From the sequence record OQ357823.1: a stretch of DNA of 43,449 bases. One strand, 5' to 3'. Below are positions 3,001 through 28,972 of this stretch, piece by piece (within the stretch, counting starts at the first letter, position 1; the number at the start of each line of letters is the position of its first letter). Source of the DNA: Escherichia phage CY1_Cui-2023. The notes under the pieces were generated by a model. The model saw nothing but the letters and a program-made list of their open reading frames with translations, was not told where the DNA came from and searched no databases. The translations under genes were made by a program, and so were the position numbers.

Positions 3001-3387
3001 GGCAATGTTCGCAGTCAGGTTATCTTTGATGCTAACAGGTTCGCAATCAGTAACGGCATTAGCTCAGGTTCCGGTCAGTGGTCACTGCCTTTCGTGGTTG
3101 AGAATAATCAGGTGTTCATCCAGAGCGCAGTAATCCAGGATGGTTCAATCACTAACGCGAAGATTGGAAACCGGATTCAGTCTAACAATTACGTTGCTGG
3201 ATCTCAGGGATGGTCGATTGATAAGTCAGGTAGCGCCGAGTTTAGTAACGCAACCGTAAGGGGTAGTCTGTACGCCAACAGTGGTAACTTTGCATTCAAC
3301 GGCACTAATAACACGGTTCAGATTAACGGAAACGGGATCACTGTTAACCTGGCGAATGGGGGGAGGGTTGTTGTAGGTACGTTCTAA
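1..3387 (+). CDS. central tail fiber / host-specificity protein (lambda gpJ-like), 1128 aa
   Basis: Uninterrupted 1128-codon ORF from ATG at nt 1; N-terminus follows the lambda J pattern; fibronectin type III-like segment (VQWRKENGNW...VRVRAVSD); Gly/Asn-rich C-terminal receptor-binding-like tail; I-K-L-M genes sit at the other window end. Confidence 0.85.
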   Translation: MAQDIKIYGSKGGQPKQHQPVEQPDNLISVNKVKVLLAVSDGEVDNSFSLKDLYLADVPVQNQNGTYNYEGVTAEFRPGTQSQDYIAGLEGANSEVQVNREISNSTPYIIAVNNTQLSAIRVKLFWPRLIKQENNGDLNGTSCEYAIDLSVDGATYTEYTRGVANGKTTSGYDRSIRVNLPAEFSSALVRVRKITADSESSTLVNDMQITTYQEVIDAKFRYPLTALVYVEFSSDLFPNGIPTISIKKRWKLIRVPTNYNPETRTYSGTWNGTFKMAYSNNPAWVLYDLVTNQRYGLDQRELGITIDKWGLYEAAQFCDQMVPDGKGGMEPRYLCDVVIQQKVEAYQVIRDICSIFRGLTFYDGEQIGIVVDKPRQPSYVFTNDNVVDGLFNRTFGSDKSLYTVANVQFDDVENSYQQDVEPVFELEATRRFGYNPVDLTAIGCTRRSEANRRGRWLLKTNLRSETISFTTGLEGMIPMIGEVIAVNDQAWSSNYTLNLSGRIESVSGLQVFVPFKIDAAAGDRILINKPDGMPEYRTIASVSEDGMTLQLNTAFSFTPQPDTVFAIDKENLALQQYVVTGIQKADSDGDDAFGYTITAVEYDPNKYDEIDYGVNIQDRPTSIVEPDTLLAPENVQVSSYSKVVQGLSVETMIITWDKVQYAKTYTVQWRKENGNWINVPRTANTEIDIEGIYAGIYQVRVRAVSDTENVSAWSDIASASLTGKIGTPSAPTVITASDDEVFGIRVKWGFPENSADTSYTELQQVADNGDGTYPPENASLLTLVPYPSYEYWHTTLPAGKVIWYRARLIDKIGNVSPWTDFVRGMASDDVESIIGEIKVDIENSEGFKYLQQNAIAKNSAIQAQAESIIENALANEGDVRRMTKENGKRKAEFVQAVNLIADEKKARVEALTQLKAQIDDEVVASLTRIDVALAEETQARTTADTALSARLGDNEAALNEKLDTYVTADSIGAQYGVKLGLKYNGVEYSSGMSMELAGSGGNVRSQVIFDANRFAISNGISSGSGQWSLPFVVENNQVFIQSAVIQDGSITNAKIGNRIQSNNYVAGSQGWSIDKSGSAEFSNATVRGSLYANSGNFAFNGTNNTVQINGNGITVNLANGGRVVVGTF

Positions 3388-3393
3388 AATAAA

Positions 3394-3417
3394 AGCCCCG
3401 AAAGGGGCTTTATCTTT
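3394..3417. terminator. bidirectional hairpin terminator between J and the convergent leftward gene
   Basis: AGCCCC-GAAA-GGGGCT stem-loop flanked by A-run upstream and T-run downstream, so it reads as an intrinsic terminator on both strands. Confidence 0.6.
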
Positions 3418-4372
3418 AATACATGTTTGGAAGGTATGGGAGTGACATTGCTATATTTGTGTTGAATGGGAACCGTGCTCCTGTTTTCGTTGAGTAGTTA
3501 CCAATAACGCTTCCGAACTCACTCCTAACTGAGCCACCAGACATAACGACACCTTTATACCGGAGGTTGTTATAGCCACCAGTTACCCGAGTGTATGCTC
3601 CGGTTCTAAGTATTGGGAAGTACCCACCACCTATTGACTGGAATGAATTTGTTAACTGTAGAAATCCACCAAGAACAAATGGACGCTTAACTGTCGAGAA
3701 AACAACCTGACCAGCTGGGTTTACTATAGTTATTCCAGGTCCGCCAACTGGAGCTGTATTATTGAATATAACGAGATCTATAGTTACAGATGCGCCAACA
3801 TTATCAATTCCAGTATATGAGTTGCTTCTGCAAAGTATGCTGTCCCCATCAAATTCAACAGTTACATTCGGGTCACTCCACCTCCCAAAAGGAACTCCAG
3901 TAACTGGAAGTTTGTAACTACCATTTACTGTAACAGTCCCTACATATTGAGCGGTAAGTATCCTTGAGTTTGTTGTTATGGAAACAAAGTCAGTTGAGTT
4001 TGCAACCAAAATTCCCTGCCCACTTGCAGCACCCGCTATCTCAAAGCAGTTACCTGAGAAGTTTATCAACCTTCCTCTAGCACCGTTGAAGTTACTAACA
4101 TTTATCCTTCCCTGTGAGTCTGATACACGCTGGAATCCATTTAGGTAATAAACCTCAGGCACTACGCCAAAAACAACTACATCAACCGCTTTAATTGGAA
4201 GCATGAATGCAGTTGATCCACTAGTTTGTGTAAGACCGAAAGTTAAACCTCCATTTGCTGAGTTGAAACCTGACGTTGGAACTGAACCTGTCACATTTGG
4301 AATTCTCAAACCTGATGTTATCTCCATTGCCGGCCTTCCATCATTAAGGTTTATGTAGATACCTTGACCCAT
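3416..4372 (-). CDS. hypothetical Gly/Ser/Thr/Asn-rich beta-type protein (possible fiber/adhesin-like), 318 aa
   Basis: Long ORF; ATG at 4372 overlaps upstream stop as TAATG; strong SD AAGGAG 8 nt upstream; low-complexity G/S/T/N composition. Track start 4381 is GTG; ATG 4372 preferred. Confidence 0.5.
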   Translation of the reverse strand: MGQGIYINLNDGRPAMEITSGLRIPNVTGSVPTSGFNSANGGLTFGLTQTSGSTAFMLPIKAVDVVVFGVVPEVYYLNGFQRVSDSQGRINVSNFNGARGRLINFSGNCFEIAGAASGQGILVANSTDFVSITTNSRILTAQYVGTVTVNGSYKLPVTGVPFGRWSDPNVTVEFDGDSILCRSNSYTGIDNVGASVTIDLVIFNNTAPVGGPGITIVNPAGQVVFSTVKRPFVLGGFLQLTNSFQSIGGGYFPILRTGAYTRVTGGYNNLRYKGVVMSGGSVRSEFGSVIGNYSTKTGARFPFNTNIAMSLPYLPNMY

Positions 4373-4614
4373 TATTTCCACTCCTTAGAGCCGTGGTCAG
4401 CAACAGACCCGCTGTAACCGCCACCATTCATCTTAATGCCGTCGTAGCGCACATCAACTTCACCAGCCGGTAGAACCACTCCACCTTTCCATTTAGCCAC
4501 GCATACTCCGTTTGCTTGCGTTGCACACCAACCGTCAGGGCGAGGACCAGAAGAGCAACCCACCATCATGATTGCTGCTGCGGAGATGATTGAAAGTTTG
4601 ATTAAGTTAGTCAT
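4372..4614 (-). CDS. small lipoprotein, Cor-like superinfection-exclusion candidate, 80 aa
   Basis: N-terminal signal peptide with lipobox MMVGC-SS; AAGGA SD before ATG 4614; sits next to the tail-fiber gene as cor does in T1/phi80-type phages; translationally coupled to the downstream gene. Confidence 0.55.
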
Positions 4615-4682
4615 TTTCTTATTCCTTAGAATGTGCATTTCGTTTCGATGGAGTAATCATACCTCAACTGTGAGTTTTGTCT

Positions 4683-4943
4683 TTAGCAATTAATGCTATT
4701 CAACCACCTGTTATATTTATCCTTCTCATTGATTGCCTTTTCCAGTGACTTGAATCTTAAAAGTAGTGGCATGCAGTCAACACTCATAGTTAAGGATTCG
4801 TCGCAGCTATTTGAACCAGTCAGCCAAAGTGAGAAGTACTGTTGTTCGAGGCCGTAGTTCCTGTCTTTATTGACTCTAACGCTAACAACTTTGAATTTCA
4901 AACCTGCCAACTTAACCTTATCTATAAATTCTGACTTATTCAT
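4683..4943 (-). CDS. hypothetical protein, 86 aa
   Basis: ORF with AAGGAG SD 7 nt upstream of ATG 4943. Confidence 0.5.
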   Translation of the reverse strand: MNKSEFIDKVKLAGLKFKVVSVRVNKDRNYGLEQQYFSLWLTGSNSCDESLTMSVDCMPLLLRFKSLEKAINEKDKYNRWLNSINC

Positions 4944-4972
4944 CTTGTTGCTCCTTTTGAGTTTGCCTGTAA

Positions 4973-5015
4973 ATAGTACATCACCAATGAAATTTGTCTT
5001 TAGCTATTCGTGCTG
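4973..5015 (-). promoter_or_regulatory. dyad-operator promoter (CAGCA-cgaat-AGCTA, minus strand) with -10-like TACTAT
   Basis: Dyad at 5001-5015 overlaps the last codons (STNS) of the Rha-like gene; -10-like hexamer 30 bp downstream on minus strand; precedes gene starting 4943. Confidence 0.45.
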
Positions 5016-5683
5016 CTTCTTTCCAGCAACGGCTTAATGTCGATACCAAGTTTATTCTCGATCAATCCTGCCAGTGCGTCAGTCTTCTCTTTAAGAGCGA
5101 AACATTGTGCTTCATACCTAAACCTTGCTTCCATTTCATCGGAACGTGATACCCAAGACTGCCGAGCTTCACAAGCGAGAAGGTCAAGCTTCTCGTCAAT
5201 GTTCTTATCCATAAGGAGGATTTCATTGATTCGCTGCTCCGCAACGATTCGCTGGCCAAGGTGAGCGTTCTGCGCATTAGCCACACCAAGCATCACGCGC
5301 GCTTCTTTTAGCTCATCAATACTCACCATCTGGCTGATTACTTCCGTTTGTTTGTTGATGGTGGACTGCATCTCTTTAAGCTTATTAAGAACCGCACGGC
5401 GAACAGACTTTGACTCACGCATTCCAACAAGAAGCATCTGTTCCATATTAAGCACTGGTGAGTTGATTGACTTTCTATAACCCCCTCTCCTCTCACTTTT
5501 GATTACGAAACTTTCGTAGTCAAACTCAAACCCCTCAAGCTCATCCTCTATCCTCTCAACAAAGTCATTGTGCCGAACATCAGATTCACCGGCAACTAAC
5601 CTCGCTGGGTTGATAACTTCATTCAAAAACTGATAACTGTTCATTTTTACATCTTCATTTAGTAGAGTTAGGTTCATTTTCAT
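5000..5683 (-). CDS. Rha-family phage regulatory protein (putative)
   Basis: N-terminal segment LNEVINPARLVAGESDVRHNDFVERI matches the Rha-domain pattern; track ORF begins with TTG at 5710, first in-frame ATGs at 5683/5677; start uncertain. Confidence 0.5.
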   Translation of the reverse strand: MKMNLTLLNEDVKMNSYQFLNEVINPARLVAGESDVRHNDFVERIEDELEGFEFDYESFVIKSERRGGYRKSINSPVLNMEQMLLVGMRESKSVRRAVLNKLKEMQSTINKQTEVISQMVSIDELKEARVMLGVANAQNAHLGQRIVAEQRINEILLMDKNIDEKLDLLACEARQSWVSRSDEMEARFRYEAQCFALKEKTDALAGLIENKLGIDIKPLLERSSTNS

Positions 5684-5782
5684 CTCTCTTCTGGTTTTTT
5701 CATGGCTCAAATCTGAGCCATCACTTTGGTTCCCAGCCTGAAATTTAGGTTGGATGACAGCACCATTGCCGCCACGCGCCTA

Positions 5783-5825
5783 AATATACCTAAAGATAGC
5801 CAGTTGTCTTTAGCAAATCGTGCTA
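5783..5825 (-). promoter_or_regulatory. dyad-operator promoter (TAGCA-cgatt-TGCTA) with -10 TATATT, for the Rha-like gene
   Basis: Dyad 5811-5825 read on minus strand; TATATT exactly 30 bp downstream (5788-5783). Confidence 0.5.
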
Positions 5826-5854
5826 TTTATCGACAATTTCACCATAAATCACAG

Positions 5855-6020
5855 TTACACGTAACCGATGTAACTCGATGTATACAATCTCATCCGCGGG
5901 AAATGATATACTCGCTGTTACGCCAATTTACGCATTGGTTACATTAAAATATCTATATATATCAACCTTTTACTCTTATTATTATTATTATATATATTAC
6001 TGTGTATATCATGTAACTAC
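5855..6020. repeat. intergenic control region with GTAAC/GTTAC motif cluster plus (TA)n and (ATT)5 microsatellites
   Basis: GTTACACGTAACCGATGTAAC, GTTACGCC, GGTTAC at 5862-5945; (TA)4-5 at 5953-5961; TTATTATTATTATTA at 5977-5991; CATGTAAC at 6010-6017; lies between divergent genes. Confidence 0.6.
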
Positions 6021-6313
6021 TTCTATAGAGTGTTCCGGTTATAATTTTAATATCATGTGGATTTATACAGTATTGCGCGGCAGCTATACCAATGCACCCT
6101 CAGCGAGAAACGGCATACACGATATACACGATGTTTACATTGAGCTATGGCTGGCTTGAGATGCCAAAAAGCGTAACTAGTGCCAATGCCTACACGAAAT
6201 TACAAAGATTCACGCGTAAACTTAAATCAACGATTGGCAAAACCAATTGGACTGGTTACGGTGCTGAATATATAGTTACCTCATCGAAAGCAATCAACCA
6301 GAGAGATATATAA

Positions 6314-6508
6314 ATGACCTACTACATTATCAAAGAGAAAAACAACGCACTGTTCGGCGACTGCTACTTTGGAGGAGAGGCCGGTTACACCACGGATAAG
6401 AACGAAGCAGACAGATTCGAGACCAAAGGAGAAGCCCGCGATGTACTGACCGGTTACTTCACTGAAGAAGATTTGAAGTCTGTTAAAGTAGTTAAGGTCA
6501 AGGGGTGA
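6314..6508 (+). CDS. hypothetical protein, 64 aa
   Basis: ORF directly abutting the exonuclease gene; first rightward gene after the control region. Confidence 0.5.
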   Translation: MTYYIIKEKNNALFGDCYFGGEAGYTTDKNEADRFETKGEARDVLTGYFTEEDLKSVKVVKVKG

Positions 6509-6511
6509 GTT

Positions 6512-7477
6512 ATGAGCTTTAAAGTTTTTACGCGAGAGGAGCTAAGCAACGAGGCTTACCACGCTGAAACTGAACACATCTCAGGTAGCTCGCTTGTCGA
6601 GATTATCCAGGGATCACCAGCCAAGTGGAAGTTTAAGCAGCGCAACAATGATAGCAAGGCGCTTAAGTTCGGCACGCTAAGCCACACGATGATTTTAGAG
6701 CAAGATGTATTCGAAAAAGAATACCTTCGCGCAACAGACCTTGACTCGATTGAAGGCTTAATTACAAGTCAGTCTGGATTATCATCAGCACTTAAAAAAG
6801 TTGGTGTAGCTGGCACGTCAGGTAAGGGGTATAGCGAGCTTATAGAGATGATGTATCGATCTGGTGAGGATTGGCCCGTTGGATGGTTAATTGAGCAGCA
6901 GGAGAGCGCCCAGGCGCTTGCGGATGGTAAGGAGCTAGTTAGCGCAGTAGACTATGACAAGGTTGTAGCGATGCGTGAGGTCCTCTGCAACATTCCGGCG
7001 TATAATGCGATCGTGAACAGTAAGACGGCGCAGAAAGAGTTATCGATCTTCGGTGAGATTCTAGGAGTCGGCGTTAAGATTCGAATTGACCACGTTGATG
7101 TTGTTGATGGAGCAGTTCGGATCACAGATTACAAAACGACAGCAGACGCAAGCCCGGAAGGATTCGGTAAGTCAGCATTCAACCACGGATACCTTGCAAA
7201 AATGGCACTTCAGCGTGATCTGTTTGTGAAAGCATTCAACGAGAAGCGCAAGGTTGTTGTGGGGTTGCTGGCACAGGAGAAGGTGGAGCTATACTTACCA
7301 ATGCTGTACACCCTAACTGACGAACAGCTTCGCATTGGTCGTCTCCAGTATCTTGAGGCACTTGCCACTTACAAGAAGTGCAAGGAGCTAGATATCTGGC
7401 CTGGGTACTCGAACGGCATAACAGAGCAAGAACTACTAGTCCCTGAGTGGGCTCTAAAGCAATACAAAGAAATCTAA
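6512..7477 (+). CDS. PD-(D/E)XK recombination exonuclease (lambda Exo/YqaJ-like)
   Basis: Motif IDHVDVVDGAVRITDYKTT resembles the D...D/E-x-K nuclease core; SD AAGGGGTGAG; immediately upstream of erf. Confidence 0.65.
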   Translation: MSFKVFTREELSNEAYHAETEHISGSSLVEIIQGSPAKWKFKQRNNDSKALKFGTLSHTMILEQDVFEKEYLRATDLDSIEGLITSQSGLSSALKKVGVAGTSGKGYSELIEMMYRSGEDWPVGWLIEQQESAQALADGKELVSAVDYDKVVAMREVLCNIPAYNAIVNSKTAQKELSIFGEILGVGVKIRIDHVDVVDGAVRITDYKTTADASPEGFGKSAFNHGYLAKMALQRDLFVKAFNEKRKVVVGLLAQEKVELYLPMLYTLTDEQLRIGRLQYLEALATYKKCKELDIWPGYSNGITEQELLVPEWALKQYKEI

Positions 7478-7478
7478 A

Positions 7479-7521
7479 CAGCACGAATTGCTAAAACAAA
7501 ACGGGATGACTTAGGTATAGT
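7479..7521 (+). promoter_or_regulatory. dyad-operator promoter (CAGCA-cgaat-TGCTA) with -10 TATAGT
   Basis: Dyad 7479-7493; -10 at 7516-7521 exactly 30 bp from dyad centre; leader AATCAACAACGAACGAGG precedes ATG 7551. Confidence 0.55.
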
Positions 7522-7550
7522 TATCCAATCAACAACGAACGAGGTTAAAG

Positions 7551-8201
7551 ATGCAAATTTCAGAATTATGCAAATCAATTTTAAAAGCGCTTCACACTGC
7601 TAAATCGCTATTTGCGAAGGCTGAAAAGTCTAAGCAGAACTCTCACTTAAAGAATAAATACGCTACCTTAGAAGACGTTTTGGCGGCTGTTGAGCCTGGT
7701 TTATATGAGTGTGGTTTGGTGATGTTCCAGAGTGTGATTGATGACGAACAAACAAATCGCATGAAGGTCGAGACAAAGCTGTTTCATGTTGAATCTGGAG
7801 AGTGGGTAAGCTTCTTAATGATAGTCCCAATCAGCAAGAATGATGCACAAGGTTACGGATCAGCTTTAACATACGCTCGTCGCTACGGTATCACAGCTGC
7901 CTTGGGTCTTAGCCAGGCTGATGATGACGGAAATCTTGCAGCCAAAGGCGTTAAGGATTTCAAGCGAGAGCTAGAGAAATGCAATACTCTTGATGAACTT
8001 CGTAACGTCTGGAAAGAGGCTAAGCAGTCACTTGATGCGGCTGGATGGAAGGTTTTTGAACCTCACATTATCGAGCGAAAAGCAGAGATTGAGGCTAGTG
8101 CAATGACGGGCTTCAACCCAGCGAAACCTAAGCAGGTTGCACAAAAAGCTGTTCAAGAAGAAAAGGCTGAAGTACAATCTCAAGAAATCGATACATTCTA
8201 A
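7551..8201 (+). CDS. erf: Erf-family single-strand annealing protein
   Basis: YATLEDVLAAVEP and GSALTYARRYGITAALGL match the P22 Erf signature (..YARKY..). Confidence 0.8.
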   Translation: MQISELCKSILKALHTAKSLFAKAEKSKQNSHLKNKYATLEDVLAAVEPGLYECGLVMFQSVIDDEQTNRMKVETKLFHVESGEWVSFLMIVPISKNDAQGYGSALTYARRYGITAALGLSQADDDGNLAAKGVKDFKRELEKCNTLDELRNVWKEAKQSLDAAGWKVFEPHIIERKAEIEASAMTGFNPAKPKQVAQKAVQEEKAEVQSQEIDTF

Positions 8202-8241
8202 TTTAACGGGGCTTAGGCCCCAACATTAAGAGAGAAAGAAA

Positions 8242-8661
8242 ATGAGTCACGTAATTACTGGTGTTATCCGTCGCGCTCCGTTTACTAAAGAAGGTCAGAA
8301 TGCAAATGGCACCTGGAAAATGTACGCGGTTGATTTGAGTGAGCGCTACAAGGATAAGGATGGACAGGCGCATTACAGTAACTATCGAGCCGCCTTCTTC
8401 GCAAAAGAGTCAATGCTTGCATGGTATGACGAAGCGTTTCAGGAAGGTAAGGTTGTTAGCGTAAGTTGCGAAACTTTGGCTGTAGATGTTCGTGATAAAG
8501 ATGGTAAGACGTATGTAACCATTAATATGAACAATCCTCGACTTGAGTTTAGTCAGCGCGGTGAAGGTGGGCAGCAGCAGCAGAAACAACAACAGCAGCA
8601 GCAGCAACAACGACAGCCGCAGCCACAACAGCAGTTTGAAGCTGACAATATTCCTTTCTGA
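8242..8661 (+). CDS. ssb: single-stranded DNA-binding protein
   Basis: OB-fold-like N-terminus, Gln-rich linker and acidic C-terminal tail ending DNIPF, as in E. coli SSB (DDDIPF). Confidence 0.8.
   Translation: MSHVITGVIRRAPFTKEGQNANGTWKMYAVDLSERYKDKDGQAHYSNYRAAFFAKESMLAWYDEAFQEGKVVSVSCETLAVDVRDKDGKTYVTINMNNPRLEFSQRGEGGQQQQKQQQQQQQQRQPQPQQQFEADNIPF
8570..8634 (+). repeat. CAG/CAA trinucleotide repeat encoding the SSB poly-Q linker
   Basis: GGTGGGCAGCAGCAGCAGAAACAACAACAGCAGCAGCAGCAACAA... read directly. Confidence 0.8.
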
Positions 8662-8670
8662 TAAAAGATA

Positions 8671-8696
8671 AAGCCCCTTTCGGGGCTTTTTTATTT
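8671..8696. terminator. bidirectional intrinsic terminator between ssb and the convergent tail fiber gene
   Basis: GCCCC-TTTC-GGGGC hairpin with A-run upstream and T-run downstream. Confidence 0.7.
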
Positions 8697-10187
8697 GCTA
8701 ATCAATGTTGACACAATAGCTTTAAGTTCCTCCACTTCCCTTTCAAGTTTAGTCACCCTATCATCCGTCTCTCGCCCAACCTGAACAAGCAATCCAGTAA
8801 TGCCGGAATAGTCAACCATGTAGCTCCTATTCTCCAGTTGCAGTGGAGTTCCATCAGGGTTTACACCGTGAGCATCTATGTATTCAAAAGTACCACTAAA
8901 CGCTTCCGGTATAGCATCTTGAACCTCCTGTGCGATTACGCCAGCATAAGGCATTCCATTAGATTTCAAGGTATAGGTGTAACCGTTCATCATGCGTAAC
9001 TTTACAGTCGCGTCAGAGATAACTTCAATGTTATCTTTCTTTTCTCTGTCAGATGTTTGGTTAAATGCCGTAGCATTAATAGGCCCATTCACTTCGAAAT
9101 ACCTTCCTCCATCAGCGTTTTGTTGTGCGTACCAAAGAAAGCCATTATCTAGCTTGCACTCAACTACAGAAGGTCTTCCGTTGTTATTGCCCCAAGCCAT
9201 GATGGTGGCATTTCTATTAGGCTCATGCACTTCTAACGAGAATGACTTTACATTTCGCGTAGCGCTAATAACAGAACCAAACTCAGGCTGTATTGTTTTG
9301 AATGACTCAACGCTTAAAAACCTTTGCCACGCGCTCCATTTCCATGTGCCAGAATCCAAGTTGTACTGTCTTCTGTATGTTATGCCTTGTTTGTTGGAAG
9401 GAATATAATCTTGCGTAGTATGCCTGACACCATTCGCTATAGCGCTGTAAACAAAAAGAGTGCCAGCAGTTTCTTCAGGATATCCATTGGCAACGGTCGC
9501 ATTAGCTGTGTTGTTTTGGTAATAAATGCCAGTATTTTCGACTCCACTAATCGAGTCAATGTTAACGTCTGACGGAATTGGAGACGAGGAGAGATAAGGA
9601 ACCATAAGGTTATTCCTTGCTGTTTTCTTATTCTCCAGATCTGCCAGGTTCTGGCTTTTAGCCAGAAGTAGACCTGGGTTAATGCTGTCAGCGTAACCTG
9701 CCGCTTCTTGCGCTGATGCCGCTGCTGCGTCTTTATCAGAAGCTACCTGATTTGCATCATTTGATACCTGCGCTCCAATATTAACAATCTCACCATATTG
9801 CGTATTTACTTGATTTACATCACTTGCAAATTTATCCTGATTAAAATCCTTAAAAACATCAACCGCTGTTGCAACCTCAGATTCTCTCGATTGGTAGAAG
9901 CGCAGAGTTTCCGCAACATCCTGTGCCAATCCCTGAACGGTAATCCCATCATGAGCTAGAATCGCGTAACCAGTACCAGCAGGAACAGTTTCAGAATTTG
10001 GGTTGTATACATTAATCTGCGTATCGCTGATAATTTCAGAGATAGTGTAAATCTTCACTGGTTCAGTTTTGAACACAATAGTGGCGCCTACACGAATGAG
10101 AGTAAGCGGAGCCATCCAGTTGGTTCCAGTACCAGTTACGGTACCGTTGGCTGCCAGGCTTGCTGTGCCAGAATCATAAATTGCCAT
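8691..10187 (-). CDS. tail fiber protein with C-terminal intramolecular chaperone (peptidase S74-like) domain, 498 aa
   Basis: C-terminal SDREKKDNIEVIS...GVIAQEVQDAIPEAF...YSGITGLLVQ...LEREVEELKAIV matches the auto-cleaving chaperone domain of phage fibers/endosialidases; SD GGAGA before ATG 10187. Confidence 0.7.
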   Translation of the reverse strand: MAIYDSGTASLAANGTVTGTGTNWMAPLTLIRVGATIVFKTEPVKIYTISEIISDTQINVYNPNSETVPAGTGYAILAHDGITVQGLAQDVAETLRFYQSRESEVATAVDVFKDFNQDKFASDVNQVNTQYGEIVNIGAQVSNDANQVASDKDAAAASAQEAAGYADSINPGLLLAKSQNLADLENKKTARNNLMVPYLSSSPIPSDVNIDSISGVENTGIYYQNNTANATVANGYPEETAGTLFVYSAIANGVRHTTQDYIPSNKQGITYRRQYNLDSGTWKWSAWQRFLSVESFKTIQPEFGSVISATRNVKSFSLEVHEPNRNATIMAWGNNNGRPSVVECKLDNGFLWYAQQNADGGRYFEVNGPINATAFNQTSDREKKDNIEVISDATVKLRMMNGYTYTLKSNGMPYAGVIAQEVQDAIPEAFSGTFEYIDAHGVNPDGTPLQLENRSYMVDYSGITGLLVQVGRETDDRVTKLEREVEELKAIVSTLISK

Positions 10188-10252
10188 TGTAAAGTCTCCG
10201 TTTGTAAAATAGCACTAATTGATAAAATTCATTCTACCATCTTTCAGGCAAT

Positions 10253-10272
10253 AAAAAACCTCCCGAAGGAGG
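10253..10272 (-). terminator. intrinsic terminator after primase gene (minus strand)
   Basis: CCTCC-CGAA-GGAGG hairpin followed on minus strand by TTTTTTAT. Confidence 0.6.
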
Positions 10273-11196
10273 TTAGTTTAGTAAGTCGTTGGCTTTGTAT
10301 ATTTTCTTGCGTATTCCTGTTTTAAATGACCTCCCGTCGTTAGGAATCACCACATCAACATTACGATCGTCAGCGACAGCGAGTATATCAGTATCACAAT
10401 CGCGGCAAGCAATCCTGAACCTTCTTGACCTGTCGCGGTGGATAACCATCTCCATATTGTAACAGGAGAAAGCAACAAACACCTCGCGACCCCCAGTAGC
10501 AAGGTGAACATGTACGCCATCAATGTAATTGTCGACAACATAAGTGTAACTATTATCCTGCCTAGAACCAATAACGTAAACAGAATCACGAGTGTAATCA
10601 CCAGCAAGGAACTTAACATTTGAATCCTCATCAATAAACATTACGTTACAAAACTCATCACCAAGCCCATCCTCATAAACCATAGAGCATGGGGTTGCGT
10701 GAATCATTGAACCATCCTTAGCGATACCAACATCAAAACCATCACTAAGGTAAATACCCTCGTATGTCGTGAGTGGACTTGATTCGACTCTCATGGTTCT
10801 CTCCATTACCTCCAGAACTTTCTCGTGGTCGACATGGGCACCCATTTTGTATCGCTGAGTTCTCGACGCTTGCTTGTTTGCTTTAACTATAACCTCAATT
10901 GGTGTTAAGTTCAGCCAGTCACCAAGCAAATTTACTGAATCGGCGAAGGACAATCCAGTGCACTTCATGACCCATCCTATACCTGTATCATTACCGCACT
11001 GACTGCAAATTGCAGCGCCATTACCTTTCTCGTTATTTAATTCATCAGTAAAACGAAACCTATCCTTACCAAAGCAGTAAGGGCATGGCCCGTGTTTCTT
11101 GCTAAGGTTTTCTTTTGTCCAGCCCATGTGAGATTCGTAAAACTTTGACCACATGCCCTTCATTTTTGACAAAACTTCATTCTTATCGTGATGCAT
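10273..11196 (-). CDS. DNA primase (zinc-ribbon plus TOPRIM-like)
   Basis: CPYC...CSQC zinc-binding motif near N-terminus followed by acidic TOPRIM-like region; position beside helicase. Confidence 0.6.
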   Translation of the reverse strand: MHHDKNEVLSKMKGMWSKFYESHMGWTKENLSKKHGPCPYCFGKDRFRFTDELNNEKGNGAAICSQCGNDTGIGWVMKCTGLSFADSVNLLGDWLNLTPIEVIVKANKQASRTQRYKMGAHVDHEKVLEVMERTMRVESSPLTTYEGIYLSDGFDVGIAKDGSMIHATPCSMVYEDGLGDEFCNVMFIDEDSNVKFLAGDYTRDSVYVIGSRQDNSYTYVVDNYIDGVHVHLATGGREVFVAFSCYNMEMVIHRDRSRRFRIACRDCDTDILAVADDRNVDVVIPNDGRSFKTGIRKKIYKANDLLN

Positions 11197-11236
11197 AAAA
11201 AAGCCCTCGCATTTAACTTGAGGGCATTATACATAC

Positions 11237-11719
11237 TCATTCAGATCTTTCTTTAGCTTTTCGTGCGGCTTCGTTGGCAATCTTATTCTTTCGCCATGGT
11301 CGACAGGGTGGCTTTGTTGCTAGTTCTGCATCGGTAACTACGCGAAGCATATGGCGCTTCTTGCATCGAAGTGTTAGCGGTTTTCCGTTTCCGTCGAATT
11401 GCAGGTCTGGTCGGCAGAATGTAGCTCGAAATCCCTCCTTATTTCGCTTGTACGCATTATGTGCTCGCTGAGCCCCTCGAGCCGAAATCATACCGCGGTT
11501 AAACCATTCCGATACAGCTTGGTTGGACACATTTAACTGCTTTGCGATGTTCGCCTTTGTACCGTAGAAATCAAGAACCATCTCCAGGCGAGCACGTAGC
11601 CCAGCCTTTACCTCATCTTTCAATACGTAGTAGCCTGATGGTCGTTTGCGTTGCTTTTTGTCTTTTGTGCGCACGGTTCCGTTATTGCCGTTAATAGTTC
11701 GCTTGTCGATTTCACACAT
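11237..11719 (-). CDS. putative HTH DNA-binding protein (Cro/YdaS-like), 160 aa
   Basis: Segment KQLNVSNQAVSEWFNRG resembles a helix-turn-helix recognition helix; basic N-terminus. Confidence 0.45.
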   Translation of the reverse strand: MCEIDKRTINGNNGTVRTKDKKQRKRPSGYYVLKDEVKAGLRARLEMVLDFYGTKANIAKQLNVSNQAVSEWFNRGMISARGAQRAHNAYKRNKEGFRATFCRPDLQFDGNGKPLTLRCKKRHMLRVVTDAELATKPPCRPWRKNKIANEAARKAKERSE

Positions 11720-19583: not shown

Positions 19584-21167
19584 TCACCCCAACAATCGCG
19601 GATTAATGTAAATCTTATCACCAATCAGGCATGTATAGTTTTTCTCATCAAGCATAGGAACCAAGTGGTCCTTGATGCGAGTCATTACGCCAGCCTGTCC
19701 TTCAAAAGGTTTAACTTTGCGTGCTGCTTCATACAGTGAGCGAACGCCAACAACACCCTTCCCATTCTTACCTTGCTTAATCAGGATATCAACCAGCTTA
19801 TTCATTTCAGCATTATCACCAGCATGACCAGCAGCACTAGCGGACGACAAATAAGTCTTGCTTAACTCGTGGAAAATCATAACCGCTTCTTGCATTGTTT
19901 CAAGCTCAATCTCTCTTGATTTCTGCGGACTCGACCCTGCCGGTGCGAACCAGTTGCGAATAACGTGCAATACTGAGGCAATACGGATTGCTTGCTTATC
20001 AAATTTACCAAGAGCACCACGTAACATCGTGTGGGAATATTTACCGCCATCACCAAGATGCGGTTCCATTTCCTGGCGAGCTCGGTTAAGGTAGCGCATG
20101 GATGACGCACTTACTGTCAGTTTCACTTCAACTTCATTCATAATTTCATGAACGAGACGGAAATAGTCTGCTTTAAGACCATCATCAATAGCCTCGTATG
20201 TTGAATCGCCATTCTCATCAACAAACACGCGGTCTCCAAGAAATGACTTTTCACGCACCAGAAGGAAACGCTCGGAAACACCAATACCACGCGCACCAGC
20301 ATTCATAATCGCATTGATTGTTTCATCCTGAGCAATTACAGAGATGCACCCCATTGCCACGAAACTCATGTTGTTTTCTGCGTTAGCGCGGGCAATAGAT
20401 ACGTTACCAGCATCCCACGCTTTAAGTACAAGCTCGCTGTTCGTTTTCTTGGAACCATCACCGTATGTCATGCCCAATAATGAGTTGACGCTTGTTGCCT
20501 CATCCGAGATGACCGCAAAGTTACCCTGGCGGTTGTTGATTCGTGCAAGACCTTCTGGCGTAGTATCTGAGACCGGGAATACGATATCGCACAGCTTCTC
20601 GAGCTTTTCCTCTAAATCTTCCTTCTCCTCAAACAGTGAAGCCATCTCAGATGGTGACTTCTCCTGTTTCATTTCTTTTGCTAGCGCAGACAGCTTAGCC
20701 ATAATCTTTTTGCGGTCACGTTTACGCACCTCGTTCAAACGCTCAGTCTCAGCAATCATTGGCGCAATTGACAGAGAGTTAATGGCTGACTTACCAGTAG
20801 ATGGCGGCTGGCTAGTTACCACGTAAAGCGATGTTGGCTGCTGGGTTCCGTGATACTCAACAGTAAAGCGCCCTAGCATCGCAGCGGACACACAACCCAA
20901 AAAGTGCATGTATGCTGATGACTCTGGGAACTGAACTGAGCGAGCAATATTTGCCGAGAGCTTACCAACAACATCAATGTCATTGCCTAGAGATATTACA
21001 GGGTACTTGTCATTACCTGCGTCAATCTCCACAGGTGTTTTCCAGAATGATTGAGACTGCCGATAGCCATTTGCATTAATGGCCACGCGAAGCGGTGGGA
21101 GGTTGTCGGTCGCGGCAATCGCCATAACTTGTTCAACAGATAGTTTATCTTCGTTGAAATCAAACAT
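19584..21167 (-). CDS. large P-loop-containing protein of unknown function (possibly DUF3987-like), 527 aa
   Basis: Long ORF with SD ACGGAGAG; deviant Walker A-like TSQPPSTGKS and Walker B-like AVISDEAT; N- and C-terminal segments are homologous to the 160-aa ORF at 23768-24250. Confidence 0.55.
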   Translation of the reverse strand: MFDFNEDKLSVEQVMAIAATDNLPPLRVAINANGYRQSQSFWKTPVEIDAGNDKYPVISLGNDIDVVGKLSANIARSVQFPESSAYMHFLGCVSAAMLGRFTVEYHGTQQPTSLYVVTSQPPSTGKSAINSLSIAPMIAETERLNEVRKRDRKKIMAKLSALAKEMKQEKSPSEMASLFEEKEDLEEKLEKLCDIVFPVSDTTPEGLARINNRQGNFAVISDEATSVNSLLGMTYGDGSKKTNSELVLKAWDAGNVSIARANAENNMSFVAMGCISVIAQDETINAIMNAGARGIGVSERFLLVREKSFLGDRVFVDENGDSTYEAIDDGLKADYFRLVHEIMNEVEVKLTVSASSMRYLNRARQEMEPHLGDGGKYSHTMLRGALGKFDKQAIRIASVLHVIRNWFAPAGSSPQKSREIELETMQEAVMIFHELSKTYLSSASAAGHAGDNAEMNKLVDILIKQGKNGKGVVGVRSLYEAARKVKPFEGQAGVMTRIKDHLVPMLDEKNYTCLIGDKIYINPRLLG

Positions 21168-22599: not shown

Positions 22600-22643
22600 A
22601 TTATGGTCCCGTCGCCAATGTTTGTCATTAGCAAAAAGTGCTA
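22600..22643 (-). promoter_or_regulatory. dyad-operator promoter (TAGCA-ctttt-TGCTA) with -10 CATAAT
   Basis: Dyad 22629-22643 on minus strand; CATAAT (reverse complement of 22600-22605); leader ATCAACAACGAGGAGAGAGAT before ATG 22572. Confidence 0.5.
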
Positions 22644-22660
22644 TTCGTTGGGTTTATGTA

Positions 22661-22757
22661 TTATTGCAGTTATTGCAATGATTCATCTCATTATTGCACA
22701 TATAGCAATATTGCATCTGATGCAATGATGTTTTTGATTGTTGCAGAATTTGCAATT
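22661..22757. repeat. array of at least 7 short TTGCA/TATTGCA iteron-like repeats
   Basis: TTATTGCA at 22661, 22670, 22691; ATATTGCA 22708; TGCAAT 22721; TTGCA 22741 and 22750; direct and inverted copies within about 100 bp. Confidence 0.6.
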
Positions 22758-22829
22758 ATTGATGTGATGGTGAATGAATGGTGGATGGACTACCATACAA
22801 GTTGATTTTTATTCTGGCCGAGCCATTTT

Positions 22830-23215
22830 GCCGCATACACGTAACCGGCGTAGCGCGATGTAAGCCAACCACTATCGTTACGCGAGTTACGCGAAGCTAC
22901 GCCTAGACTTACACTATAAGTACTTAATATATATATATATCTTCTTTCTATTATTATTATTATTATTATTATTATTGTATGTAAGTCATGTAACGGGTGT
23001 TCTTCTGCTATATATATGTTTTTTCCTATCAGAGTACATATCTGCAATTTTATGGAAGAAATAGCCAGTATTGGGCAACCCCACCCAATTTATGCGTTAC
23101 AGGCGTTACCACAAACTACATTTAGCTATAGCTTGGCTAGGATGCCATTTCGCGTAACCACACCTAAAAGTTACCAAAAATTACACTTGATTACGTGTGT
23201 AAGTCGATATATGAT
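22830..23215. repeat. AT-rich control region with CGTAAC/GTTACG clusters, (TA)7 and (ATT)9 microsatellites
   Basis: ACGTAACCGG, CGTTACGCGAGTTACGCGA at 22840-22890; (TA)7 22927-22940; (ATT)9 22950-22976; CATGTAAC 22988-22995; GCGTTACAGGCGTTACC, GCGTAACC, AGTTACC, ATTACGTG at 23093-23207. Confidence 0.6.
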
Positions 23216-23246: not shown

Positions 23247-23726
23247 ATGAATGAGAAAGCAACATTGGGTCAAGTGATTCGCGAGATGGTAAAACAGGCT
23301 CTAAAATCTGAAGATAAGCAATTCAGCGTTTCACTAAGGAAAATTGAAAGCATTATTGGCAGTGAAGATGGTTCCATTAAGAAGCTTAAGAGCTCATACA
23401 TCTACAACACAACAGCTCGCATGCCTGAGTTGAGAGACGCAGGTCTGAAGGCGACTCACTACTATGATGAAGATAGCGGCAAAAGCCAATTCGGCGTGAC
23501 AGAGCTATCAGATGGCAAGAGGCTGGTTATCAAACTGATCCCTGGAACTGCCAACATTGGTATCAGGAAGAAGACCAATGACGCAATCAAGGTGGAGGCA
23601 ATAACTGAATTCAAGGCTAAGATATCGAAAGTCATGCCAGACCTATCGGAGTATGAAGGTGAAGCGCTCGCAGCAGCAATGAAAGCAATTAAAGATTATC
23701 GTTTGATTATTGAGGAGATTAAATAA
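23247..23726 (+). CDS. hypothetical protein, 159 aa
   Basis: ATG 23247 with strong SD GAGAGGAG; track start 23238 is GTG; first gene right of the control region. Confidence 0.5.
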   Translation: MNEKATLGQVIREMVKQALKSEDKQFSVSLRKIESIIGSEDGSIKKLKSSYIYNTTARMPELRDAGLKATHYYDEDSGKSQFGVTELSDGKRLVIKLIPGTANIGIRKKTNDAIKVEAITEFKAKISKVMPDLSEYEGEALAAAMKAIKDYRLIIEEIK

Positions 23727-23767
23727 TGTTTAACTTTAACGATGACAAACTAACAGCATAGCAGGTA

Positions 23768-24250
23768 ATGAATATCGCCAGGCAAGATGGACTTTCGCCA
23801 GTCAGAATCGTAATAAATGCAAATGGGTATCGTCAGTCAACGCCATTCTGGGGTTCGATTGATACGTCAGATGTGTACTCAGGTGATGAGCTTGGTGTGC
23901 TAATTAAAATCATCAGGAAGATGGGAGTTAACGGGAAAGGAGTGGTTGGTGTCAGGTCTGTATATGAAGGAGCTCGAAAGGTTAAGCCTTTTGTTGGGCG
24001 TAATGGAGTGATGTTGCTCATCAAGGACAAGCTAATCCCAGAGCTCGACAAGATGAATGTTACATGTCTAATTGGCGATAAGGTTTATGTTCACCCCGCA
24101 ATACTAAATGAGTGTTTGGAGCCTAACTTCAAGGTCTACGAAGGTAAGCATCCTAGTAGACTACCATACCACTTGCGGTACAGCGAGGAAGAGGTTGAGG
24201 CGGCGATGGAGTTTTATCGGGAAGCTAAATTACTCCTGAATGGACAATAG
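23768..24250 (+). CDS. mini-paralog of the 527-aa P-loop protein (N- plus C-terminal segments only); upstream in-frame ATG 23726 is cut off by an amber codon
   Basis: Residues align with the N-terminus (RVAINANGYRQS) and C-terminus (GKGVVGVRS..ARKVKPF...TCLIGDK.Y) of the 19584-21167 product; the reading frame is continuous from ATG 23726 except for TAG at 23759-23761. Confidence 0.45.
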   Translation: MNIARQDGLSPVRIVINANGYRQSTPFWGSIDTSDVYSGDELGVLIKIIRKMGVNGKGVVGVRSVYEGARKVKPFVGRNGVMLLIKDKLIPELDKMNVTCLIGDKVYVHPAILNECLEPNFKVYEGKHPSRLPYHLRYSEEEVEAAMEFYREAKLLLNGQ

Positions 24251-24290
24251 CACGAATTGCTAAACAATCGCCGGAGAAATCCGGCATAAT
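24248..24290 (+). promoter_or_regulatory. dyad-operator promoter (TAGCA-cgaat-TGCTA) with -10 CATAAT
   Basis: Dyad 24248-24262 begins in the TAG stop of the mini-paralog; hairpin CCGGAGAAATCCGG in spacer; -10 24285-24290; leader ATCGACAACACGATGG. Confidence 0.55.
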
Positions 24291-25901: not shown

Positions 25902-25977
25902 GTTCTGCTGGCGTAACAGGATAACGCAAAGACCTCCTAAGTCTTAGTTGCTGGTTCGAGTCCAGCGCGGAACACCA
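25902..25977 (+). tRNA. tRNA-Arg (anticodon CCU)
   Basis: Hand-folded cloverleaf: acceptor GTTCTGC/GCGGAAC (one G-U), D-arm GCGT-AACAGGATA-ACGC, anticodon arm AAGAC-CTCCTAA-GTCTT (CCT at 25936-25938), T-arm GCTGG-TTCGAGT-CCAGC, discriminator A plus encoded CCA; 76 nt. Confidence 0.8.
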
Positions 25978-26891: not shown

Positions 26892-27398
26892 ATGAATTGG
26901 CATGATATTTTTGAATATAGAGACGGGCTTTTAATAAGAAAGGTAAAAGTAGCAAATGTATCAAAGGTTGGAGAGGTGGCCGGAAGAGTTGATAAATTTG
27001 GCTATGTGATACTAAAGTATAGACAAAAAGCATACAGGTGTCACAGGGTGGTGTGGGAGATGCACAATGGAGCAATCCCTAAAGGCATGTACATAGATCA
27101 CATAAACCAAAATAGAAGTGACAATAGAATAGAGAACTTAAGGTTAGTAAGCAATAAAGAGAACTCAAATAACAGATCACTATCATCAAGAAATAAAAGC
27201 GGAATAAACGGTGTAAGCTGGTGCAAAAGAGAGAATAGATGGCTTGTTCAGGCTAGAGAGTTTGGTAAAACAGTCTTCATATGCTACAAGGACACTATAG
27301 AGGAGGCTGCATTGGCAAGGTCGCAGTATGACAAATTGAACGGATATCATGAAAATCATGGCTCTGAAAATAAAGGCTACCTAAATACGAGAGCGTAA
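26892..27398 (+). CDS. HNH homing endonuclease with AP2-like DNA-binding domain
   Basis: HNH core (CHRVVWEMHNG...IDHINQNRSDNRIENLRLVSNKEN) followed by AP2-like segment (KSGINGVSW...W.A..F.....DTIEEA); inserted between terS and terL. Confidence 0.8.
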   Translation: MNWHDIFEYRDGLLIRKVKVANVSKVGEVAGRVDKFGYVILKYRQKAYRCHRVVWEMHNGAIPKGMYIDHINQNRSDNRIENLRLVSNKENSNNRSLSSRNKSGINGVSWCKRENRWLVQAREFGKTVFICYKDTIEEAALARSQYDKLNGYHENHGSENKGYLNTRA

Positions 27399-27400
27399 CA

Positions 27401-28972
27401 ATGAGTGAATTAATAGTCTGGGATGAACTGACTCACGCTGAAAAGATGGCTATAAAGGCAATCTCTGAGCATAGTTTCGAAGGGTTCTTGCGGTGCTTCT
27501 TTCAGATAACGCAAGGCGAGAGATTCAAAATGAATTGGCATGCTAAATACCTTTGTCGTGTCATAGATGAGATTCTTGATGGTAAGAGAAAGGATACCAT
27601 CATAAACGTAGCTCCTGGATCAGCCAAAACCGAGCTCTTTAGTATACATTTCCCTGTATATAGCATGATCAAGATTAAGAAGGTTAGAAATCTTAGTTTG
27701 TCGTTCTCTGACTCATTGGTTAAGCGTAACTCAAAGCGTGTGCGCGACCTGATTAAGTCAAAGGAGTTTCAGGAACTTTGGCCTTGCTCATTTGGGACTT
27801 GCAGGGATGATGAGATTCAGGTTCTAGATGAAGATGGAAAGGTGAGGTTTGAATCGATATCTAAGGCAATGGCTGGACAGGTGACTGGTTCGCGTGGTGG
27901 TTACATGACCGATGATTACAGTGGATGCATAATGCTTGATGACCCGCTGAAGCCAGATGATGCGCTTAGTAATGTAAGGAGGGAGGCTGTTAATATGCTT
28001 CTCAAGAACACAATTCGCTCACGAAGGGCGAGTTCAGTTAAGGGAAAAGAGACTCCAATATTAGCCGTTCAGCAAAGGCTTCATGTTCTTGACACTAGTC
28101 ACTTCATGGAGTCTGGGCAGATGGGGATAAAATTCGACGTAGTTAAAATTCCAGCAATAGTCACGGAAGAATACGCCGACACGCTTCCTGAATGGATTAG
28201 GCAGCAGTTTATAGATGACGTTCTTTCTTCGCCATTTGTAGAGCGCGATGGGGTTAAGTATTACAGCTACTTCCCAGCAAAGGAATCAATAGAAGACTTG
28301 ATAGCCATGCGTGATGCTGATCCTTACACATTCCTTAGTCAATATGCTCAGGAGCCTGTAGCTCTAGGTGGCAACCTGATTAACGTAGACTGGCTCCAGC
28401 GCATTAGTGACACCCTGCGACCGCCAGCTAAGTACGATTACAGGTTCATGACGCTTGATACCGCGATGACCACTAAAAGCTACAGTGACTTTAGTGTACT
28501 GCAACTCTGGGGCTATAAGGATGGCAAGATTTACCTGTTAGACCAGCGACGTGGTAAATGGGAGGCGCCAGAGCTAGAGGCAGAGCTATTAGACTTCGAG
28601 AGGATGGCAAGGGCATCCAATCAGACAGATGGTATCCTTCGTAAAATCATCATCGAGAAGAAAGCATCTGGTATAGGTCTGATTCAATCAGCAGGAAGGG
28701 TTATGCGAACGCCTATCGAGCCATACGTGCCAGATAACGACAAGCTGACTCGCGTAATGAGTGCACTTCCTCAGATTAAGGCTGGCAACGTTATCCTGCC
28801 GGAGTCAGCAAATTGGCTTAACGGATTGCTAACAGAGATTGCAGCATTTACGGCAGATGATTCTCACTCGCACGATGACCAGATAGACTGTTTGACGATG
28901 GCTGTCAACCTGGTACTGAACATCGCAGAAGACCCTAAAGCGAGAATGATGCGATTAGCAGGAATTAAATAA
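27401..28972 (+). CDS. terL: terminase large subunit
   Basis: 523-aa ORF with N-terminal ATPase and C-terminal nuclease-like acidic motifs (ILDDPLKPDD...), located between terS and portal. Confidence 0.8.
   Translation: MSELIVWDELTHAEKMAIKAISEHSFEGFLRCFFQITQGERFKMNWHAKYLCRVIDEILDGKRKDTIINVAPGSAKTELFSIHFPVYSMIKIKKVRNLSLSFSDSLVKRNSKRVRDLIKSKEFQELWPCSFGTCRDDEIQVLDEDGKVRFESISKAMAGQVTGSRGGYMTDDYSGCIMLDDPLKPDDALSNVRREAVNMLLKNTIRSRRASSVKGKETPILAVQQRLHVLDTSHFMESGQMGIKFDVVKIPAIVTEEYADTLPEWIRQQFIDDVLSSPFVERDGVKYYSYFPAKESIEDLIAMRDADPYTFLSQYAQEPVALGGNLINVDWLQRISDTLRPPAKYDYRFMTLDTAMTTKSYSDFSVLQLWGYKDGKIYLLDQRRGKWEAPELEAELLDFERMARASNQTDGILRKIIIEKKASGIGLIQSAGRVMRTPIEPYVPDNDKLTRVMSALPQIKAGNVILPESANWLNGLLTEIAAFTADDSHSHDDQIDCLTMAVNLVLNIAEDPKARMMRLAGIK

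Follow-up and report, generated by a model that had tools for sequence, protein, structure and literature searches.

Early nonsense mutations can be rescued by translational restart, the early ambers of lacI and T4 rIIB being the familiar cases. In some crAss-like and Lak phages, the amber codon has been recoded (genetic code 15). Nonsense mutations can also serve for escape from a defence system, as in the lactococcal phages that escape AbiV by nonsense mutations in the early gene sav. In E. coli, reporter experiments found termination-reinitiation to be reduced by 5–70% at +2 nt and by 80–100% at +38 nt (PMC10666635), and removal of the Shine-Dalgarno (SD) sequence cuts reinitiation by 60–90% in most gene pairs (PMC6728339). 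The coliphage Rao1 escapes the Kongming system by mutations in its own dnk gene (bioRxiv 10.1101/2024.12.20.629578).

The DNA analysed here, called the window, is the whole 43,449-nt sequence OQ357823.1 of Escherichia phage CY1_Cui-2023 (Drexlerviridae, Braunvirinae). One of its small genes, called here the mini gene, is interrupted by an amber codon at codon 12. As in the lacI and rIIB cases and the E. coli termination-reinitiation systems cited above, the early stop lies in a well-initiated reading frame with an in-frame AUG within 6 nt downstream, and an N-terminally shortened protein at reduced yield would be expected. It differs from these systems in that a mere 1 nt separates its SD-like element from the AUG, and in that restart would lose the most conserved residues of the family, so that the product may be inactive.

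The mini gene resembles young pseudogenes of non-essential phage accessory genes in having a single derived stop, intact orthologs and a fully viable phage. Unlike them, it appears to have suffered at least 11 independent hits, against none in its neighbour, and the hits spare the middle 55% of its length, a pattern that would not be expected from simple neutral decay. With the TAG-recoded phages it shares an in-frame TAG in a conserved gene, and a gene caller chose code 15 for short contigs; the differences are that here TAG is a normal terminator, no suppressor tRNA is present, only one gene is affected and the host is E. coli. Finally, it shares with the defence-trigger genes (sav against AbiV, dnk of Rao1 against Kongming) a pattern of recurrent recent truncations in a small early gene under purifying selection, the parallel being drawn, unlike in those cases, purely from the pattern of mutations.

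The interrupted gene and its family

The mini gene overlaps the end of a gene encoding a DUF7174 protein, and has a longer paralog on the opposite strand. The features are as follows, in window coordinates.

19584–21167, minus strand: long paralog, a 527-residue DUF3987 protein, phrog_2373 'DNA helicase' (Pfam PF13148, E=1.4e-40; PHROG E=1e-254)
23247–23726, plus strand: upstream gene, DUF7174, phrog_4841 (Pfam PF23796, E=7e-48; an equivalent CDS is annotated in TR2)
23712–23717, plus strand: GAGGAG Shine-Dalgarno sequence, 8 nt 5' of the ancestral ATG at 23726
23726–24250, plus strand: whole ancestral mini gene, phrog_7327, 174 codons plus stop, interrupted at codon 12
23726–23761, plus strand: residual 11-codon ORF (MFNFNDDKLTA), terminating at the premature TAG
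23759–23761, plus strand: premature amber codon 12, GAG (Glu12) to TAG by a G-to-T change at 23759
23768–24250, plus strand: 160-codon ORF that remains open from the ancestral Met15; its annotation is CY1_00036 (WDS61369.1, exact match)
24117, plus strand: window-specific substitution of T for G, which turns Trp131 (TGG; at least 90% conserved in the family) into Leu (TTG)

The TAA stop of the DUF7174 gene (23724–23726) shares its last base, the A at 23726, with the ancestral start of the mini gene, giving TAATG. An earlier note on this DNA had described this overlapping ATG and the peptide MFNFNDDKLTA that it encodes, and the description is exact to the base. Direct reading also bears out its account of codon 12 as TAG with the frame open beyond it: the codons that follow are CAG GTA and then the in-frame ATG at 23768–23770, so that the gap between stop and ATG is 6 nt. 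The SD sequence before the ancestral start is kept in relatives as GAGGAG, AGGAG or AGGA. The lone SD-like string before the ATG at 23768 is AGCAGGT (23760–23766), which ends 1 nt short of the ATG, and the note was right to call it poor. Local mRNA folding around the TAG and the ATG is unremarkable (z=0.31), and a promoter and terminator scan gave hits no more numerous than in shuffled sequence.

The natural stop of the mini gene is also a TAG, at 24248–24250. Just 3' of it, the stretch 24251–24290 is conserved in divergent relatives and reads in frame as HELLNN or HGLLNN. It includes an inverted repeat, CGCCGGAGAAATCCGGCG, at 24269–24286, which is terminator-like in the scan on the minus strand only. 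The conserved stretch may be a regulatory or terminator element.

The match that the earlier note had seen between the N-termini of the mini gene and the long paralog is a homology far beyond chance. The paralog starts MFDFNEDKLSVEQVM, its codon 12 being GAA, and in BLASTP residues 1–45 of the mini gene align with 1–45 of the paralog (E=7e-21), and residues 52–128 with 448–526 (E=1e-29). On these alignments the mini gene is a copy of the DUF3987 helicase from which the ATPase core is missing, and which keeps the N-terminal ~45 and C-terminal ~77 residues. The remaining C-terminal tail, of ~47 residues, is specific to the phrog_7327 family. A variant mini gene is found at 1046–1432 of contig L018 (IMGVR_UViG_2974508497, 47,647 bp), in which the first ~128 residues are homologous and an unrelated acidic sequence stands in place of the usual tail; the tail module is thus exchangeable.

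The phrog_7327 profile has 179 positions. An intact relative, from phage PCEc3, covers positions 1–179 (E=3.6e-75), and the 160-residue ORF of the window covers positions 15–179 (hmmscan E=5.9e-62). The uninterrupted ORF of ~174 codons, from an MF[DN]F start at an ATG that overlaps or abuts the DUF7174 stop, is absent from the window: the start, the SD and the first 11 codons are there, but codon 12 is TAG, and the window thus carries a truncated allele of phrog_7327. The family is well conserved, with a mean column identity of 77%. Across 77 aligned sequences, M1, F2 and L9 never vary, and conservation is at least 90% at F4, K8 and E12. Two database searches returned ~150 clusters, nearly all of 172–177 residues and ~97% intact.

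The mini-protein has no Pfam or PADLOC domain match, and no sequence relatives in the PDB. An AlphaFold2 model of an intact member has a mean pLDDT of 49.7 and is confident only for residues ~11–40, which form three short helices; the first helix of this low-confidence model spans the positions of the TAG and of Met15. A literature search found nothing on the mini gene, and the papers on TR2 and Rao1 do not discuss it.

Origin and reading of the amber codon

The TR2 paper names CY1 as the closest relative of TR2. TR2, TR3 and Rao1 are 99.7% identical to the window at the locus, and all have the same TAG at codon 12. It is found also in four Logan contigs from separate sequencing runs, and in a 187-residue database entry (P0154), where it is translated as Q. 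In PCEc3, EC3a, AugustePiccard (Bas01), TR1, BEK1-1, 12210I and L029, codon 12 is GAG, and in SU57 and BEK6 it is GAA. Most of these relatives with Glu12 have an uninterrupted ORF of 174–176 codons from the upstream ATG, and the intact gene in the more distant relatives as a whole has 173–177 codons. All the more distant relatives have Glu at codon 12, and the TAG is therefore a single G-to-T nonsense mutation. On this distribution, the codon-12 TAG is a genuine, derived and inherited Glu-to-stop mutation that was recently fixed, and it marks the CY1/TR2/TR3/Rao1 clade of Braunvirinae coliphages. The comparison of base 23759 among related genomes had been proposed in the earlier note, which held that its reading would fall if the TAG were a sequencing error, or if relatives had a clean start at 23768 and no homology upstream. 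Neither is the case, as the TAG is present in independent assemblies, and the relatives do have the upstream homology.

There is next to no prospect that the TAG is an artefact of sequencing or assembly, or that it is read as Gln under code 15. A sequencing error at 23759 was rejected because assemblies made independently agree on the TAG: CY1, TR2, TR3 and Rao1 all show it, and so do contigs from five separate sequencing runs. For code 15 there are two database proteins of 187 residues, P0001 and P0154, which render every TAG as Q. These have Gln at both internal TAGs, and also run for 13 residues through the natural stop, which the conserved length of the family identifies as a real terminator. 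They are gene-caller artefacts, produced when an automated gene caller assigned code 15 to short contigs of this phage (L031–L034, from SRR17509932, SRR31643537, SRR31643531 and SRR25884694). Recoding was discarded because TAG is the terminator of 13 of the 73 TR2 genes and a suppressor tRNA is lacking. The TAG-terminated genes of TR2 include terS and the exonuclease, and no annotated CDS has an internal stop.

The earlier note had raised a further option, reliance on amber suppression or readthrough in a suppressor host. In this reading, supE hosts such as DH5alpha would suppress the amber and yield the full-length protein, or near-cognate readthrough at UAG-C would do so, and the TAG would be conditional or regulatory. 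The strain DH5alpha is supE44, and it is also infected by TR2. TAG accounts for six of the nine premature stops in the family, and a C, which after a stop codon makes a relatively weak termination context in E. coli, lies directly 3' of the codon-12 TAG. There is nevertheless only a very slim chance that this is the explanation. The position of the stop is not conserved, relatives reading Glu at codon 12. No suppressor tRNA is encoded in the window, the sole tRNA being Arg-CCT, and TAG is an everyday terminator in these phages, as the 13 of 73 genes noted above indicate. The share of TAG among premature stops fits mutation in a GAG-rich gene (6/9 against 46% expected, p=0.19), so that there is no significant bias towards amber. 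Lastly, BL21(DE3) and MG1655 are both without amber suppressors, and phages carrying the TAG are reported to grow on both. TR2 reached 3.5e9 PFU/ml on BL21(DE3) (PMC12628846), and Rao1, which has a TAG at codon 44 as well as at codon 12, is reported to plaque on MG1655, on which it is in routine use (bioRxiv 10.1101/2024.12.20.629578). On this basis the full-length protein is dispensable for lytic growth, and the idea that the gene relies on suppression or readthrough as a requirement is not supported.

The mutation also seems to be young. At conserved columns the window allele deviates at four positions plus the stop, compared with 3.3 ± 2.4 in intact members, and it is therefore no more degenerate than they are. 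The Trp131-to-Leu change is seen as well in an intact member (P0120), and so is not clearly damaging. Within the CY1/TR2/TR3/Rao1 clade, collinear blocks diverge by 0.2–0.4% genome-wide, and no excess of SNPs was found in the mini gene: it has two differences from TR2, one synonymous and one nonsynonymous, which is the expected number. The isolated SNPs relative to TR2 across the genome comprise 41 synonymous and 37 nonsynonymous changes. Set against the intact orthologs, the lesion is a disabling one; it turns the GAG of Glu12, a residue conserved to at least 90%, into TAG. The earlier suggestion of a recently inactivated pseudogene thus holds as regards a recent and derived lesion; inactivation is one viable reading, which is weighed below.

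Several of the SNPs between CY1 and TR2 cluster at 22609–23000. This is around the intergenic stretch from which the leftward and rightward early gene clusters diverge, where a (TA)7 run is followed by a perfect (TAT)9.3 microsatellite (22929–22976). A single tRNA-Arg gene (anticodon CCT) lies at 25902–25977 in the early gene cluster, and is annotated in TR2 and TR3 too. An HNH/AP2-type homing endonuclease ORF (26892–27398) is located between the small and large terminase genes, and the longest terL ORF of the window (27401–28972), of 523 residues, has its start 129 nt upstream of the one that the TR2 and Rao1 records give for a protein of 480 residues. The tail-fibre and lateral-tail region (window 1–11250) is only 74–98% identical to TR2, TR3 and Rao1, or is absent there, while the rest of the genome is 99.6–99.8% identical to them. 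These phages are mosaics, and a divergent tail region amid such near-identity indicates recent recombinational exchange of host-range modules.

Recurrent truncation in related phages

The CY1 clade is not alone in carrying an interrupted mini gene. Comparison of related Braunvirinae phages indicates at least 11 independent truncations of the phrog_7327 gene, bearing in mind that some of the metagenomic lesions could be assembly errors. The lesions are listed by codon of the ancestral gene.

Codon 6: TAG, in L029
Codon 7: TAG, in L030
Codon 12: TAG, in the CY1 clade
Codon 37: TAA, in EC3a
Codon ~41: +1 frameshift, in L045
Codon 42: TGA, in L057
Codon 44: TAG, of the Rao1 type
Codon 141: TAG, in phage DTL
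Codon 141: TGA, in the 12210I group
Codon 147: TAG, in L049
Codon 157: TAA, in L046

In a sample collected at the DNA level, seven of 24 distinct alleles of the mini gene are disrupted. No interruption is seen in the DUF7174 gene next to it, either in the window or in any of the 33 related loci where that gene was found, and a Fisher test of 7/24 against 0/24 gives p=0.009. None of the 11 lesions falls within codons 45–140, an interval chosen post hoc that holds 52% of the nonsense opportunities (P=0.003–0.012), and this fits the retention of a product containing the core. Early stops are not enriched in the unbiased sample (1/7, p=0.39), and become significant only when L029 and L030 are included, which brings an ascertainment bias because these two alleles were found by looking for proteins of 160 residues. 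Both have an intact 160-codon ORF from the same Met15 as the window.

The disrupted alleles otherwise resemble intact ones, apart from L046 and L049, which belong to a divergent subfamily that is absent from the reference alignment. The lesions therefore look like young events at the tips of the tree, amid purifying selection.

The Rao1 type carries two of them. In Rao1 and four Logan contigs, codon 44 has changed from TCG to TAG (window 23856 is C, against A in Rao1, L002:1071), and the Rao1 record consequently annotates only a 109-residue ORF, from Met66. The occurrence of this double amber in four unrelated sequencing runs suggests that the clade circulates as a laboratory or fermentation contaminant.

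Expression of the interrupted gene and possible causes of its loss

The earlier note had offered reinitiation at 23768 as one outcome of the TAG. We consider it most likely, with a probability of roughly 55%, that the TAG allele is a hypomorph or truncation with low-level restart, affecting a conditionally dispensable gene that has undergone repeated truncation in this phage group. In this mechanism, ribosomes would still load at the intact GAGGAG and ATG at 23726, with TAATG providing translational coupling to the upstream gene. The ribosomes would make the 11-residue peptide and terminate at 23759–23761, whereupon a fraction would reinitiate 6 nt downstream, at the ancestral Met15 codon at 23768. 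The product would be a low level of protein without residues 1–14, which comprise the MFxFxxxKLxxE motif and the beginning of the first predicted helix.

The geometry suits termination-reinitiation, in that the strong SD and ATG upstream are intact and the ATG follows the stop by 6 nt, but the downstream start has no well-spaced SD, its spacing being 1 nt. The published data suggest that a misplaced SD of this kind would cut reinitiation substantially. A reduced level of a protein lacking residues 1–14 is therefore plausible. The ATG at 23768 was also considered as a compensatory new restart codon. This was rejected because Met15 is already present in the closest intact relatives, P0002 and P0005 (which read ...LTAEQVMNIARQDGLSPVRI and ...LTPEQIMNIARQDGLSPVRI), from which it follows that the ATG is older than the TAG.

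Whether such a product would be of use is a separate matter. No other part of the protein is as conserved as the N-terminal motif that would be lost, and the helicase has this motif too, so that the shortened protein may be inactive. In addition, Rao1 is viable with a TAG at codon 44, which is downstream of Met15, so that even the restart product is dispensable. A less probable but serious alternative is that the allele is a plain null, a young pseudogene: the stop would end useful expression, the ORF would be intact only because the mutation is recent, and the gene would be decaying for want of a need for it in laboratory or industrial hosts.

The second amber gained by Rao1, still a good plaque former on MG1655, speaks for a null, as do the poorly placed SD ahead of 23768, the change of a conserved Trp to Leu in CY1, and the disruption of the mini gene in 7/24 distinct alleles against 0/24 for its neighbour. 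Several of the truncated alleles, furthermore, come from cultured phages or industrial contaminants (the TR2 clade, DTL on E. coli K12, EC3a and 12210I). Other points weigh against a null. Conserved columns show no surplus of substitutions (four plus the stop, against 3.3 ± 2.4), and there is no SNP excess; a heavily decayed copy is seen nowhere, each disrupted allele having one lesion and Rao1 two; the family is strongly conserved (77% mean column identity) and intact in ~97% of ~150 database clusters; and the truncations avoid codons 45–140. A leaky allele with restart at Met15 remains the preferred reading.

Why the mutation was fixed is a further question, to which selection can be an answer compatible with either restart or a null. 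It may be that the full-length protein, its N-terminal motif or its C-terminal tail is sensed by a host defence, or is costly, and that the nonsense mutations are a form of escape. We regard this as unlikely, although several observations are in its favour: 11 independent truncations in one gene of ~525 nt, with its neighbour of about the same size free of them, all of them young on a background of long-term purifying selection, and two in succession in the Rao1 lineage. The sav mutations of lactococcal phages against AbiV are a precedent in kind, and the dnk mutations of Rao1 against Kongming show that this phage readily loses non-essential triggers. Against it, no defence system or phenotype is linked to the mini gene, and the mini-protein has no PADLOC or Pfam match. 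Nor is there a clear association with host type, as TR1, AugustePiccard and the BEK phages, on B or K-12 hosts, have intact genes. The counts are small, and some of the metagenomic lesions are possibly assembly errors.

A distinctly unlikely variant is that selection trims the protein in a modular way. The ends would be removed while expression of the core, which resembles the C-terminal domain of the helicase (codons 45–140), was kept, and the CY1 TAG with its restart would amount to a functional isoform switch. On the N-terminal side, stops at codons 6–44 would remove the helicase-like motif or the whole module, with restart at Met15 or later; on the C-terminal side, stops at codons 141–157 would remove the family-specific tail. 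A possible reason is that the end modules are recognised by host immunity or by the replication machinery of the phage itself.

For annotation, the result means that the 160-residue protein called in the CY1, TR2 and TR3 records belongs to a locus that is really a nonsense allele of a 174-residue family. In itself, the event is of an ordinary kind, a recent nonsense mutation that hits an accessory gene the phage can do without, and that is probably leaky because of restart at Met15. The phages that carry the mini gene are major contaminants of E. coli fermentations, and also include model phages (Rao1 and the BASEL phage Bas01). The mini gene is a hotspot of independent truncations that spare the central domain, which hints at a conditional cost or at sensing of the protein. 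Its recurrent truncation flags it as a candidate for a gene that is costly under some conditions, perhaps as a trigger of defence or a modulator of replication.
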